Shown: positions 7,359 to 13,411, counted from the stretch's first letter. The stretch: 64,000 nucleotides of DNA from Candidatus Parcubacteria bacterium (GCA_023128895.1 JAGMDC010000003.1:70514-134513); one strand, 5' to 3'. Notes: generated by a model not told the origin, from the letters alone. A program made the numbers and translations.

Positions 7359-8006
7359 TTAATTATTGTTGCTCGACTTCTGATTGTTCTTTTTTGTCTT
7401 TTGCTTTTTCTCAATAATCTCAACAAAAGGAGAATCATTAACAATTTCTATTGTGCCATGCTTGTTAAATTTAGCCCATTGATAAATTCCTAAAATTTTT
7501 AAATAATCATTATAAAAATCCTCGGTTTTCTTTATGACATAATTGACATCCTCTCGGCTGAGATTGTTCCATATCTTTTTTACCTCGGGCAATGCTATCT
7601 TTTTATCACGGTGAGCAGACAATTTATTTCTTACTTTCCTATATTTTCCATTTTTTGAAAATTCTCTTAATTCTTGCAGAAATTGATTAATTTTTTTCAA
7701 TATCTCTTTTTGTTGTTCACATTTAATAGATTGGCATTCAATGATTAGATTTTTAAATTCTTGAAATTTATCATACATTGAACATATATCCATTATTATA
7801 TATTTAAGAATCGCTCTTTTTCTATGCGGATCCTTTTGCTCCGCATATATTTCACTAAGACATGAAACATCGTCGTATATTAGCCTAAAAAGGTAAAGTT
7901 GTTTCGTTAAAGATTCTTCCGGAAAAAATTTGCTTTCGTTATAATCGCTAAAAGGATGATAAATATCATCCCTATCTTTATTGTAAAAATAATTGCTTTT
8001 GTCCAT
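7359..8006 (-). CDS. hypothetical protein with a HEPN-like Rx5H motif (RNKLSAH); possible Abi-like ribonuclease
   Basis: Motif R-x5-H near residue 125; the AT-rich context suggests an acquired segment. Confidence 0.35.
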   Translation of the reverse strand: MDKSNYFYNKDRDDIYHPFSDYNESKFFPEESLTKQLYLFRLIYDDVSCLSEIYAEQKDPHRKRAILKYIIMDICSMYDKFQEFKNLIIECQSIKCEQQKEILKKINQFLQELREFSKNGKYRKVRNKLSAHRDKKIALPEVKKIWNNLSREDVNYVIKKTEDFYNDYLKILGIYQWAKFNKHGTIEIVNDSPFVEIIEKKQKTKKNNQKSSNNN

Positions 8007-10063: not shown

Positions 10064-10084
10064 GTGCCTAGGGCAGGAATCGAA
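10064..10084 (-). repeat. 21-nt direct duplicate of the 3' end (T-arm + acceptor) of the adjacent tRNA(CAU)
   Basis: GTGCCTAGGGCAGGAATCGAA is identical to 10205-10225. Confidence 0.8.
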
Positions 10085-10202: not shown

Positions 10203-10276
10203 TGGTGCCTAGGGCAGGAATCGAACCTACATTGGCCGCTTATGAGACGGTCTTAGACGCCAGTCTACTCCTAGGC
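10203..10276 (-). tRNA. tRNA-Met-like (anticodon CAT; elongator-type G1-C72), CCA encoded
   Basis: Acceptor GCCTAGG/CCTAGGC, D-stem TAGA/TCTA, anticodon loop CTCATAA, T-stem GTAGG/CCTGC; could also be tRNA-Ile2. Confidence 0.8.
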
Positions 10277-10288
10277 ATGTAGGTATAA

Positions 10289-10972
10289 TCATACTCTGCT
10301 TAATCCCTCTTTCCATCCATTAATTTTTCTCCTCAAGCGAGTCCCCTTGTGCACCAAAACTCTTAAATTACCGTAATGAGTATCGTGATTTGGATAAATT
10401 CTTTTTGATTTAGCTTTTATCAAAGTTGTCTTGGTAAATTGCGACAAAGGAATCCCCGTCACATTTGACCAATACTTTTCTACTTTTTTTACTCTTTCTT
10501 TATGAACTTCGTTAATCCTAATAGATAAAGAAAATCTTTCTTTAGAAACTTTACAAATTTCTTCAAACCATTTCAACATTAATAAAACTATCCGCGGGTC
10601 TGAATTTACAAAACCAACTTGGTCATTGCTTGAATGATTATATCCTTCACTCCAATATATTGAAATTCCGCTTATAAAAAGGTCTCGCCTACTAATTTTG
10701 CCTACTTCCTTTACCCCTTCTTTCTTTAATTTGGCTGTTTCTTCTATTCTGGTCTTTCTCACCTTTTCTAAAAAAATCATTCTTCCTTTATAACTACCGG
10801 CGCTTTGTTTCTTCGCCAATCTTTCAATTTGTTCAGGGGCGAGGGATATATCTCGACACCAACTGCTTATAGTGCCGCTTTTCTGCATATCAAGTTTTCT
10901 CGCAATTTCACTTATACTAAAACCTTTCTTGCGAAATTCTTGCGCTAAATATTTTTTCTTAATCACTGCCAT
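10289..10972 (-). CDS. hypothetical protein with an N-terminal helix-turn-helix motif
   Basis: Segment FSISEIARKLDMQKSGTISSW is HTH-like; start moved to the internal ATG (MAVIKKK) because the upstream part overlaps the tRNA 3' exon/terminator. Confidence 0.5.
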   Translation of the reverse strand: MAVIKKKYLAQEFRKKGFSISEIARKLDMQKSGTISSWCRDISLAPEQIERLAKKQSAGSYKGRMIFLEKVRKTRIEETAKLKKEGVKEVGKISRRDLFISGISIYWSEGYNHSSNDQVGFVNSDPRIVLLMLKWFEEICKVSKERFSLSIRINEVHKERVKKVEKYWSNVTGIPLSQFTKTTLIKAKSKRIYPNHDTHYGNLRVLVHKGTRLRRKINGWKEGLSRV

Positions 10973-10990
10973 ATAAAAATATAAAACTTG

Positions 10991-11270
10991 TTGCGGTGCC
11001 TGGAATTGCACCAGGGTCTCGAGCTTCTTTTATATTAACCATTTGTTTCCAAATGGAATGGACTATCCCATCCCCCCGCTTACTTAAATGGGGGGCTCTC
11101 ATTATAGTCTCTGAACCTTCCGAGCGCTCAAAGCGTTGAGTGCTTGGCTTGGCTGCTGATTGTCCAATTAAGGAGTTCCCAGCAATTTCGAGAGTTTGTC
11201 TGCGGAATATTACTATTCCGAGCCACACAATCTGTATGGGGCTCGCAAGATACTACTTCTCCACACCGCT
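10991..11270 (-). tRNA. tRNA(CAU) gene (Met/fMet/Ile2 type, A1xA72 mismatch) interrupted by a group I intron after nt 36
   Basis: Exons 11236-11270 and 10991-11026 fold into a cloverleaf (acceptor GCGGUG/CACCGC, D-stem GAGA/UCUU, anticodon stem CGAGC/GCUCG, loop CCCAU|AA, T-arm CCUGG-UGCAAUU-CCAGG). Confidence 0.75.
11027..11235 (-). ncRNA. group I intron (~209 nt, small bacterial tRNA-intron type)
   Basis: Conserved cores: P AAAUUGCUGGGAAC, Q AAUCAGCAGCCAAGCC, R GGUUCAGAGACUAUAA, S GGGAUAGUCC. P1 pairs exon GAGCCCCAU with IGS GUGUGGCUC with a U.G at the 5' splice site; the intron ends in G. Confidence 0.75.
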
Positions 11271-11305
11271 ATAAAAAAAATATCTACGAAAAATTTTCGT
11301 TGTAT

Positions 11306-11339
11306 ATCTATATCATACCGTAAAATAAAAAAAAATCAA
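11306..11339 (-). promoter_or_regulatory. sigma70-like promoter (TTGATT-16-TATGAT) driving the intron-containing tRNA
   Basis: Read on the minus strand ~35 nt upstream of the tRNA 5' end. Confidence 0.55.
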
Positions 11340-11376
11340 GGCGCGGCGCGCTTTGAATTATATCTGCGTGAATATT

Positions 11377-11940
11377 TTACAGCAATCCCAAACTAATTAA
11401 TACAGATCTGTATGTTTCTAAAATTTTCTTTGTTTGTTCCGCTTCTAATTTGAAATCGGGATCCGCAATAATATAATTTCTGTTCTTATGCGCTTTTAGC
11501 AATTGTTCTTTGTCTTTGAAAATCATTGGACTTAAATTTTTAACTTTTTCTTCAAATGTCTTACCTGAATAACCTGATTTTTTCAGCATCTCGTCAAGCA
11601 AAGAATCCGCTTCTATCACTGCCAGCTTATATTCTGTTTCCCTGCCTGTGTCTATTTTCTTAAAAATCCTGTCCCACTGTTTAGTCAATCGTTTTACGCC
11701 ATACGGTTTGAAAGTTAAAAACTGAACAATATTTTCTACATACCTTAGCCGCAGCCAATCGGTCTTGGCAATGAGAAATACCAGCCATAAAATCAAAAAC
11801 AAAGAAAAGGCCCAAAATATCGGCTTTGCAATCCCTAAAATCTGTTGCATTACCAAGGGCATTTCTGTTTGCGCGACTTGCGCGAATATTACCTGCGGTT
11901 CAAAACTTTCAATATATGAAATAATGTCTTTTGGCTCCAT
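11377..11940 (-). CDS. hypothetical membrane-anchored protein
   Basis: ORF with one TM helix. Confidence 0.5.
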   Translation of the reverse strand: MEPKDIISYIESFEPQVIFAQVAQTEMPLVMQQILGIAKPIFWAFSLFLILWLVFLIAKTDWLRLRYVENIVQFLTFKPYGVKRLTKQWDRIFKKIDTGRETEYKLAVIEADSLLDEMLKKSGYSGKTFEEKVKNLSPMIFKDKEQLLKAHKNRNYIIADPDFKLEAEQTKKILETYRSVLISLGLL

Positions 11941-11943
11941 ACT

Positions 11944-11977
11944 CTAAATTATTCTAAATTCTAAATTCTAAATTCTA
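11944..11977. repeat. heptamer tandem repeat (CTAAATT)x4-5
   Basis: Seen in sequence, intergenic. Confidence 0.8.
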
Positions 11978-13411
11978 TACCCTATATTCTAATTCCCTCG
12001 CGATGTCTAAAATTTTTTCTTCTTCAAACACATTACCGATAAGTTGAAGCCCTACTGGAAGATTATCAACTTTGCCGCACGGCAAAGACAAAGCAGGCAG
12101 GCCAGCCAAATTCACTGAAATAGTGAAAATATCAGAAAGATACATAGTAATAGGGTCGTCAACTTTTTCTCCGAGTTTGAAAGCAGTAGTGGGCGAAACT
12201 GGCGCCATAATAACATCTATATCCTGAAACGCTTTATTAAAATCCTCAATAATTCTTGTTCTCACTTTCTGCGCCTTCAAATAATACGCGTCATAATATC
12301 CAGCGGAAAGCGCGTAAATCCCAAGCATAATCCTGCGCCGAACTTCCTTGCCAAAGCCCTTTCCTCTTGTCTGTAAATATACATCCAAAAGATTATCCTG
12401 ATTTTTGGATTCTGAATAACCGTATTTTATTCCGTCAAATCTCGCGAGATTGGCGCTTGCTTCAGACGGAGAAATAATATAATAAACAGCTAACGCGTAT
12501 TTTGTGTGAGGCAAAGAGATTTCCTTTATTTTCGCGCCCATTTTCTCGTATTGTTTAATCGCGCTTCTGATTGTTTTCTCAACTTCCGGATTTATGCCTT
12601 TTACAAAATATTCCTTCGGAACCCCTATTCTTAAATTTTGAATTTTGCTTTGCCACGCCGTAGTTTTAGCGGAGGCGGGATTTATTTCTACGCTTGTGGA
12701 ATCCATCTCGTCTCTGCCGCGTATCGCGTTAAACACTATTTTAGCGTCCTCAACTGTTTTCGTTATTGGTCCAATCTGGTCCAAAGAAGAAGCAAACGCG
12801 ATTAAACCATTCCTGGAAACAGCGCCGTAACTCGGCTTCAGCCCGACTACTCCGCAAAAAGACGCCGGCAAACGGACAGACCCGCCGGTGTCAGAGCCAA
12901 GCGCGAAAGCGCACTCGTCTGCCGCAACCGCCGCGGCTGACCCTCCTGAAGAACCGCCCGGTACGCGCTCCAAATCGCAGGGATTTTTTGTGGGCCCAAA
13001 CGCGGAATTTTCTGTTGACGAACCCATTGCAAATTCGTCTAAATTTGTTTTTCCTAAAAACACACTCCCCTGCTTATTAAGTTTTTTTATTACTCCAGCA
13101 TCGTATGGGGCGATATAATTTTCTAAAATTTTTGAACCGGCAGTGCTTTGTTCTCCTTTAATCAAAATATTATCTTTAATGGCGCAGGGAATTCCAGCAA
13201 GCAGCGGCAATTTTTCGTTTTTAAAAATTAAATCATCAATTTTTTTTGCCTGTTCTATTGCTAACTTTTCAGTAACATGTAAATAAGCGAAAATATCCTT
13301 ATCGCTTTGTTTTATTTTATCTAAATACGCGTTAGCCAATTCTAATGCTGAAAATTTTTTATCTTTCAGTCCCTGATGAGTTTGTGTGATTGTAAGAGTA
13401 GTCAAATTCAC
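11975..13411 (-). CDS. gatA: Glu/Asp-tRNA amidotransferase subunit A
   Basis: Amidase signature GGSSGGSAAAVA. Confidence 0.9.
   Translation of the reverse strand: MNLTTLTITQTHQGLKDKKFSALELANAYLDKIKQSDKDIFAYLHVTEKLAIEQAKKIDDLIFKNEKLPLLAGIPCAIKDNILIKGEQSTAGSKILENYIAPYDAGVIKKLNKQGSVFLGKTNLDEFAMGSSTENSAFGPTKNPCDLERVPGGSSGGSAAAVAADECAFALGSDTGGSVRLPASFCGVVGLKPSYGAVSRNGLIAFASSLDQIGPITKTVEDAKIVFNAIRGRDEMDSTSVEINPASAKTTAWQSKIQNLRIGVPKEYFVKGINPEVEKTIRSAIKQYEKMGAKIKEISLPHTKYALAVYYIISPSEASANLARFDGIKYGYSESKNQDNLLDVYLQTRGKGFGKEVRRRIMLGIYALSAGYYDAYYLKAQKVRTRIIEDFNKAFQDIDVIMAPVSPTTAFKLGEKVDDPITMYLSDIFTISVNLAGLPALSLPCGKVDNLPVGLQLIGNVFEEEKILDIARELEYRV

Follow-up and report, generated by a model that had tools for sequence, protein, structure and literature searches.

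A compact group I intron in a probable initiator-type tRNA(CAU) gene of a Parcubacteria bacterium and a candidate endonuclease gene beside it

A stretch of 64,000 nucleotides (nt) of DNA from Candidatus Parcubacteria bacterium (GCA_023128895.1, JAGMDC010000003.1:70514-134513; the whole stretch is referred to here as the window) carries an interrupted tRNA(CAU) gene on its minus strand at 10991..11270, as read directly from the sequence. The gene is, with high probability, an initiator-type tRNA(CAU) gene split between U36 and A37 by a compact group I intron that holds no open reading frame (ORF). It is followed on the same strand by a gene for a protein with a divergent LAGLIDADG-type fold and by a second tRNA(CAU) gene, and homologues of the first two were compared across genomes and metagenomes.

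Exons, boundaries and structure of the intron

The 5' exon (AGCGGTGTGGAGAAGTAGTATCTTGCGAGCCCCAT; 11236..11270, minus strand) is 35 nt long, covers tRNA positions 1-36 and ends in ...GAGCCCCAU with the anticodon CAU, U36 being U-1 of the splice site. The 209-nt intron (11027..11235, minus strand), delimited with the Rfam family RF00028 and by covariation, runs from ACAGAUUGUGUGGCUC... to ...UUAAUAUAAAAG and has the end AAAAG. The 36-nt 3' exon (AAGCTCGAGACCCTGGTGCAATTCCAGGCACCGCAA; 10991..11026, minus strand) covers tRNA positions 37-73, reads AAGCUCGAG...CACCGCAA from 11026 to 10991, and does not encode CCA. This minus-strand reading reproduces exactly the parsing given in the original prediction, which was made from the sequence alone and placed exons of 35 and 36 nt around an intron of about 209 nt. 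It also described an A1xA72 mismatch, a CC-CAU-AA anticodon loop and a CCUGG-UGCAAUU-CCAGG T arm, and all of these are present.

RF00028 is the sole non-tRNA RNA family in Rfam that is matched in the 64-kb window, with a hit on the minus strand at 11248..11039 of 78.0 bits against a gathering threshold of 50 (E=4e-18, model positions 1-253). In the Rfam alignment, the four blocks that had been named as the P, Q, R and S core elements are the strands of P4, P4'/P6, P7/P3' and P7', respectively. The match stops at the P9 hairpin (11039), and the terminal G of the intron lies 12 nt further on, at 11027. Splice sites were sought by enumerating every U/G combination and running ARAGORN on each spliced candidate. 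When spliced by hand, the joined exons form a tRNA of 71-72 nt that ARAGORN calls tRNA-Met(cat), and the expected ligation product reads ...CCCAUAAGCUCG.... Run on the window, ARAGORN reports nothing at 10991-11270, its intact tRNAs being Val, Asp and Met(cat) at 10276..10203, and its intron modes (-i and -i0,400) return zero calls on the precursor.

Intron-less alleles are present on two related metagenome contigs, L069 (507-578, ...GGCCCAT/AACCTCG...) and L094 (744-816, ...GCCCCAT/AAGCTGG...; slashes mark the junction). Both match the predicted junction exactly, which confirms the boundaries of the intron. The claim of a small group I intron at 36/37 of a tRNA(CAU) thus agrees with the covariance-model match, with these alleles, and with covariation in both the intron and the exons.

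Covariation was assessed on 46 distinct homologous precursors from GTDB genomes and Joint Genome Institute (JGI) metagenomes, aligned end to end. Pairs were counted on this alignment using a structure string written from the window sequence, with slid partners and 500 shuffles as controls. Helices P1-P9, with the P7 pseudoknot strand, are 97.9% paired and show changes on both sides in 29 of 49 pairs; slid partners are 31-44% paired, and none of the 500 shuffles equalled the observed values. The exon cloverleaf reaches 95.9% pairing, and 14 of its 21 pairs are compensated; the acceptor, D and anticodon stems covary, and four of the five T stem pairs are compensated. All 46 sequences have U-1, the terminal G, A37 and A38, as well as GNRA tetraloops at both L2 and L9. 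The U.G pair at the splice site, which had been predicted together with the terminal G, is likewise present in 46/46.

All structural elements are given on the minus strand, from 5' to 3'. The internal guide sequence GUGUGGCUC (11220..11228, by direct reading) is the 3' strand of P1 and the partner of the exon end. P2 (11204..11219) is the hairpin GGAAUA-GUAA-UAUUCC with a GNRA tetraloop (6/6 pairs compensated, 99.6% paired). P3, formed by 11194..11190 with 11100..11096 (5/5 pairs compensated, 100% paired), surrounds P4-P5-P6/P6a and the 5' strand of P7 (11111..11105), so that this domain spans 11096..11194; P4 is almost invariant, and P5 and P6a covary. J7/3 is 4 nt long and P3' runs directly into P8. 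The next segment, 11060..11095, holds the P8 hairpin (11095..11072, 6/6 pairs compensated), J8/7 and the P7 3' strand UAGUCC (11065..11060); P7 is 100% paired with two compensated pairs. The P9 hairpin CCAUUUG-GAAA-CAAAUGG (11039..11056; 5/7 pairs compensated, 99.7% paired) is followed by the 12-nt tail to the terminal G.

In the P1 register that is common to the family, U-1 pairs with the G two bases downstream (alignment columns 37:49); the UG, AU and CG pairs are each found in 46/46, and a fourth pair covaries (CG in 39, UA in 7). The register of the original prediction (U35.G43, 8/9 pairs) is feasible in the window sequence. The window is alone among the 46 family members in having C31:G39 in the anticodon stem, and its guide reads GGCUC (versus GGCCC), corresponding to that pair, which favors the originally predicted register in the window. 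Guide and exon look co-adapted here. Both registers choose the identical splice site.

Splicing would proceed as in the characterized group I introns with which this one is homologous. A precursor would be transcribed from a promoter upstream of 11270, and the guide sequence and the end of the 5' exon (...CCCAU) would form P1 with the U.G wobble at the splice site. An external guanosine held in P7 would attack after U36, the terminal G (11027) would then take the P7 site, and the free 3'-OH of U36 would attack the 3' splice site. This would join ...CAU to AAGCUCG..., so that the anticodon loop again has its 7 nt, CCCAUAA, and the tRNA measures 71 nt; RNase P and the CCA-adding enzyme would complete it. 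Catalytic activity is predicted on this basis, and initiator function and the promoter, treated below, are predictions as well.

Identity of the tRNA and relation to known introns

Features of the interrupted tRNA point to an initiator-type tRNA. Position 1:72 lacks a Watson-Crick pair in the window and is unpaired in 40/46 family members and weak in 6/46 (CxA 30, AxA 7, AxG 3, U-A 4, U.G 2). A11:U24 is found in 42/46, and the discriminator A73 in 46/46. Compared with reference tRNA-fMet sequences of Omnitrophota, Desulfobacterota and Nitrospirota from the supplement of PMC13011429, the spliced tRNAs show 62-86% identity, versus 51-62% to an Ile2-like tRNA and to the second tRNA(CAU) of the window.

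The CAU anticodon is also carried by elongator tRNA-Met and by lysidine-modified tRNA-Ile2 (CAU), of which Azoarcus tRNA-Ile is an example, and the interrupted gene could in principle encode either. Its site and CAU/AA flanks are the same as those of the Planctomycetota Ile2-type introns (L002, L003, L007, L018, L027), the three-G:C signature of initiators is incomplete, and comparable Microgenomatia genes are labeled 'Met' in the survey by Nakagawa et al. (2026; PMC13011429). Such an identity is nonetheless improbable, given a 1:72 position that is mismatched or weak in 46/46, the prevalence of A11:U24, the invariant A73, and an identity to tRNA-fMet above the 53-62% found with Ile2-like tRNA. 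An elongator-type tRNA(CAU) moreover adjoins the interrupted one in every relative, and the Planctomycetota Ile2 introns are distant, scoring 24-33 bits with a hidden Markov model (HMM) of the family against 155-191 bits within the family.

Several points weigh against a functional initiator tRNA gene that is spliced and expressed. The anticodon stem of the window has A29:U41, G30:C40 and C31:G39 in place of three G:C pairs, and the family has A:U at 29:41 in 44/46, G:C at 30:40 in 46/46 and G:C at 31:39 in 36/46; because this signature is incomplete, the tRNA is called initiator-type rather than a canonical tRNA-fMet. The oddities (C at position 33, G at 55, no GG in the D loop) would by themselves suggest a pseudogene, yet they are conserved in the family. 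Position 33 (11239) is C instead of the near-universal U in 39/46, the D loop AGUAGUA (11251-11257) lacks G18G19, and the T loop UGCAAUU (11004-11010) has G in place of the near-universal U55. The case for splicing and expression is comparative in its entirety. The tRNA inventory spans the 64-kb window, and it cannot be claimed that this is the sole initiator tRNA of the genome.

The same tRNA oddities, with A1xA72, would fit a decayed, non-splicing intron remnant in a split pseudogene, a reading that also has in its favor the blank result of ARAGORN's intron modes and a P5 that is the shortest of the family. This is very unlikely: every core helix is intact, the window fits a structure held by compensatory changes in 46 homologues, and conservation extends to U-1, the terminal G and the pairs of P7. 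The unusual tRNA features occur throughout the family and co-vary, and the exons themselves covary. Position 18:55 is A:G in 43/46 and G:U in 3/46, with G19:C56 in 46/46, which looks like a coupled swap of the tertiary pair in an initiator-type tRNA.

The initiator-type tRNA(CAU) intron can be set beside several groups of known introns. The Azoarcus tRNA-Ile intron has the same 36/37 site and an architecture that is similarly minimal. Azoarcus-type Ile2 introns in general lie, like that of the window, after U36 of CAU and before A37, and CAU pairs with a GUG-containing guide; they are also about 200 nt long, have no ORF, and consist of a minimal P1-P9 set in which P2 and P9 carry GNRA loops. 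They differ in their host, which is Ile2 versus the initiator-like tRNA of the window. The fMet 33/34 ('fMet.2Ug') introns of Cyanobacteriota, Nitrospirota, Omnitrophota and others, and the two Microgenomatia tRNA-Met(CAU) introns at 33/34, share an initiator-type host with a mismatch or weak pair at 1:72 (exons 62-86% identical) but differ in site and in core (theirs being AAUUCGGGGAA / GGUGUAGAGACU). C33 in the window means that the U used as U-1 by these introns is absent. The Asn/Asp 35/36 introns found in Patescibacteria are from the same phylum, share the core AAUUGCNGGGAA...AAUCNGCAGCC...GGUUCAGAGACUA with the window, and are among the nearest outsiders at 43-57 bits with the family HMM. 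They differ in site, in being longer, in the extra hairpins between P3' and P7' and, in some, in the presence of internal HNH genes, and they are classed as IA in PMC13011429.

The window intron has the minimal periphery of subgroup IC3, in that P5abc and P7.1/P7.2 are absent and both P2 and P9 end in GNRA loops. Close kinship with the Azoarcus-type Ile2 introns, which together with membership of IC3 was the initial assumption, is not supported by HMM scores: the intron is closer to some proteobacterial and Patescibacteria Asn introns than to the Ile2-type, and its nearest outsiders include the Asn 35/36 introns classed IA in that survey.

Four classical classes of bacterial tRNA introns are recognized (Leu 34/35, Arg 36/37, fMet 33/34 and Ile2 36/37, all IC3), to which the 2020 tFind preprint adds 17. 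Nakagawa et al. (2026; PMC13011429) describe 22 tRNA introns in 95 complete Patescibacteria genomes, mostly Asn/Asp 35/36, with two in tRNA-Met(CAU) of Microgenomatia at site 33/34; the portion of that survey drawn on has none at 36/37 in tRNA(CAU) and none classed IC among the 95 genomes. That such an intron is notable in this lineage, as the original prediction held, is an overstatement, since Patescibacteria tRNA group I introns had already been surveyed. Measured against that portion of the survey, an initiator-type tRNA interrupted at 36/37 is a new combination of host and site for the phylum and a widespread one, and it extends the catalogue.

GTDB was scanned (one genome per species) with the intron core pattern, which gave 41 loci. 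A tRNA(CAU) split at 36/37 was found in 13 genomes labeled Patescibacteria, Parcubacteria or Saccharibacteria and, in an Ile2-like tRNA, in five Planctomycetota. Searching metagenomes with the downstream protein as seed yielded 80 further loci, nearly all with the same precursor. The initiator-type 36/37 intron is thereby present in 13 genomes, each representing a species, and in over 60 contigs from metagenomes.

The flanking gene and its linkage to intron-bearing tRNAs

The flanking gene (10289..10972, minus strand) starts with an ATG at 10972, 18 nt 3' of the tRNA, and encodes a protein of 227 amino acids (aa) with an N-terminal helix-turn-helix (HTH) and a C-terminal divergent LAGLIDADG-type fold. 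A 240-aa ORF at 10289..11011 is a GTG-started version of it that overlaps the tRNA, the true start being the ATG at 10972. The AlphaFold model, built from 40 homologues, has a predicted local distance difference test (pLDDT) score of 85 and shows the alpha-beta-beta-alpha-beta-beta-alpha order of the LAGLIDADG fold. Within the motif ...FIAGxAMYWSEG..., E109-G110 are invariant in 40 + 23 sequences from two subfamilies. E109 may be equivalent to the catalytic Asp/Glu of LAGLIDADG enzymes.

As a hypothesis, the flanking gene most likely encodes a free-standing homing endonuclease of divergent LAGLIDADG type, which would cut intron-less alleles and so promote or maintain the unit of intron plus gene. 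Collaborative homing of an ORF-less intron with a nearby free-standing endonuclease is known from phages (PMC3984707). The window resembles these cases in its ORF-less intron, in the endonuclease-like gene just outside the interrupted gene, and in its sporadic occurrence. The phage cases involve other nuclease families, whereas here the interrupted gene is a cellular tRNA gene, the fold is of LAGLIDADG type, and cleavage is a prediction.

Not everything agrees with a nuclease. Sequence searches of the flanking protein against Pfam, NCBIfam and PDB found no nuclease domain, only the N-terminal HTH, and Foldseek gave zero matches. The gene also stands beside an intron-less tRNA in L069 and L094, which is awkward if the protein cuts that allele. 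The T loop is UGCAAAU in these two gene-flanked intron-less alleles, versus UGCAAUU, rarely UGCAACU, in those bearing the 36/37 intron; this difference may be a lineage signal or may bear on target recognition.

In all of the approximately 77 metagenome loci with enough upstream sequence, a tRNA of the interrupted type lies directly upstream of the flanking gene on the same strand. About 75 of these have the 36/37 intron, two (L069 and L094) are intron-less, and one (L082) has an intron at 33/34. The L082 locus (1563-1858), with the same tRNA and flanking gene, reads GGCU/.../CAUAACC and scores 66 bits with RF00028. Conversely, the intron occurs without the flanking gene in 7/13 genome loci. 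In six of these, a gap of 12-80 nt separates the initiator tRNA from the tRNA-Met that follows; in the seventh, L005, a classical LAGLIDADG ORF lies between tRNA-Met and tRNA-Asp, at a distance of about 100-770 nt from the initiator tRNA on its downstream side. The L005 ORF has the motif LGFIAADGS and a weak match to Pfam LAGLIDADG_3. Endonuclease genes seem to be drawn to the tRNA cluster. One locus with the gene (L017) and two without it (L025, L031) have identical tRNAs, and what sets them apart is a cassette of about 770 nt that brings its own promoter.

Genes of a paralogous subfamily, which shares about 40% identity and counts at least 376 members, are found 15-40 nt upstream of tRNA-Asn(GUU). 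In five of the six loci examined (L001, L127, L129, L130 and L131), that tRNA-Asn carries a 35/36 group I intron, and in L128 it is intron-less. The paralogue genes are at L001:355-1023 (minus strand) and at 1501-2172 of L127-L131; L127 is GCA_026016225.1, listed in Table 1 of PMC13011429, and L129 is Ca. Microsyncoccus archaeolyticus. Each of the two paralogues flanks one specific, usually intron-bearing, tRNA gene, and this tight linkage of a family of HTH + LAGLIDADG-fold genes with intron-bearing tRNA genes is previously unreported.

The protein might instead be a regulator of the tRNA cluster in the manner of WhiA, or a maturase that aids folding of the intron, and this has a substantial though lesser chance of being right than of being wrong. 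WhiA, a transcription factor, has two degenerate LAGLIDADG domains, a C-terminal HTH and no catalytic acid, whereas the flanking protein has a single such domain, carries its HTH at the N-terminus, keeps a Glu that is invariant, and has no Pfam WhiA match. The acidic residue E109 that closes the LAGLIDADG-like motif is invariant in both subfamilies, and the gene is sporadic, being present or absent between identical tRNA genes, a distribution typical of selfish endonuclease genes and not of core regulators. Since 7/13 genome loci have the intron without the gene, the intron does not need the protein, and the idea of an essential maturase was downgraded for that reason.

Tentatively, and with a confidence that stays somewhat below even, the observations may be explained by an unrecognized family of free-standing endonucleases in Parcubacteria-type Patescibacteria that mobilizes or stabilizes ORF-less tRNA introns by collaborative homing. 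Its members would combine an HTH at the N-terminus with a single divergent LAGLIDADG domain, with one subfamily placed 3' of the initiator tRNA and another 5' of tRNA-Asn. If true, this would be the first cellular, non-phage case of collaborative homing, and it would account for the frequency and persistence of 'endonuclease-less' tRNA introns in these minimal genomes. The flanking gene could then outweigh the intron in importance, as a testable alternative explanation for how these introns spread and persist.

Promoter, reading frames and neighboring genes

Upstream of the tRNA gene are gatA (GatA, 11975..13411) and a gene for a 187-aa protein of unknown function (11377..11940), and this synteny is conserved in eight genome loci. 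A terminator-like hairpin followed by a run of 10 T lies 3' of the 187-aa gene (11326..11356, minus strand; the hairpin was reported on the other strand, and the T-run comes from the minus-strand reading). Since the hairpin and T-run end the upstream gene, the tRNA needs a promoter. A candidate, TTGATT-16-TATGAT (11312..11339, minus strand, 9/12 consensus matches), is located 42 nt 5' of the tRNA and overlaps the 3' side of the terminator-like hairpin. A consensus scan of the region gave three promoter-like sites against 2.1 expected by chance from shuffling, so the window candidate is not distinctive. Relatives have clear TTGCxx-17-TATAAT boxes that end about 6 nt 5' of the tRNA, a geometry that differs from the 42-nt leader of the window. 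The promoter included in the original prediction is accordingly plausible but unproven as a dedicated tRNA promoter: the upstream terminator and the boxes of relatives speak for one, and the particular candidate in the window does not rise above chance.

Public gene calls on this sequence (L122-L126) place an 89-aa ORF over the intron and the 240-aa GTG-start version of the flanking gene over part of the tRNA, and leave the tRNA itself uncalled. Both overlapping ORFs had been dismissed as spurious in the original prediction; this is borne out for the ORF over the intron, and the 240-aa ORF is a real gene when started at the ATG. That the stretch encodes a protein, through the 89-aa ORF (10959..11228, minus strand) or small plus-strand ORFs, can be practically discounted even with the 89-aa ORF annotated by public gene callers. 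Across the 46 homologues no open frame over the intron is conserved in any frame or on either strand, so the small ORFs there are spurious; the longest open frame switches strand and frame between homologues, indels are not in multiples of three, and the covarying RNA structure accounts for the full sequence. The intron is in this respect mainly an annotation matter: the initiator-type tRNA gene escapes ARAGORN, public calls put spurious ORFs in its place, and the initiator tRNA would consequently seem absent from the genome.

The second tRNA(CAU) (10203..10276, minus strand; ARAGORN; 34 bits with Rfam) is of elongator type, with G1:C72 and an encoded CCA, and is intron-less. It is indeed the second, intron-less tRNA(CAU) that had been predicted, though not a redundant copy. 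The gene order fMet-Met-Asp is kept in relatives, and this conserved cluster, together with G1:C72 and the encoded CCA, marks it as a distinct isoacceptor and not a back-up copy of the interrupted gene.

One copy of a perfect 21-nt direct repeat (10064-10084 and 10205-10225) is the 3' end of this second tRNA(CAU), beginning in the T loop and closing with the first C of CCA. The two copies are 120 nt apart, and the spacer between them is strongly structured, with a fold z-score of -4.5. In relatives the spacing from tRNA-Met to tRNA-Asp is 2-25 nt. The arrangement looks like the scar left by integration into the 3' end of the tRNA, or else like a small RNA that was inserted. A 215-aa protein (7359-8006, minus strand), encoded about 2 kb beyond the tRNA cluster on its downstream side, matches the HEPN AbiU2 abortive-infection domain (Pfam, E=7e-10).

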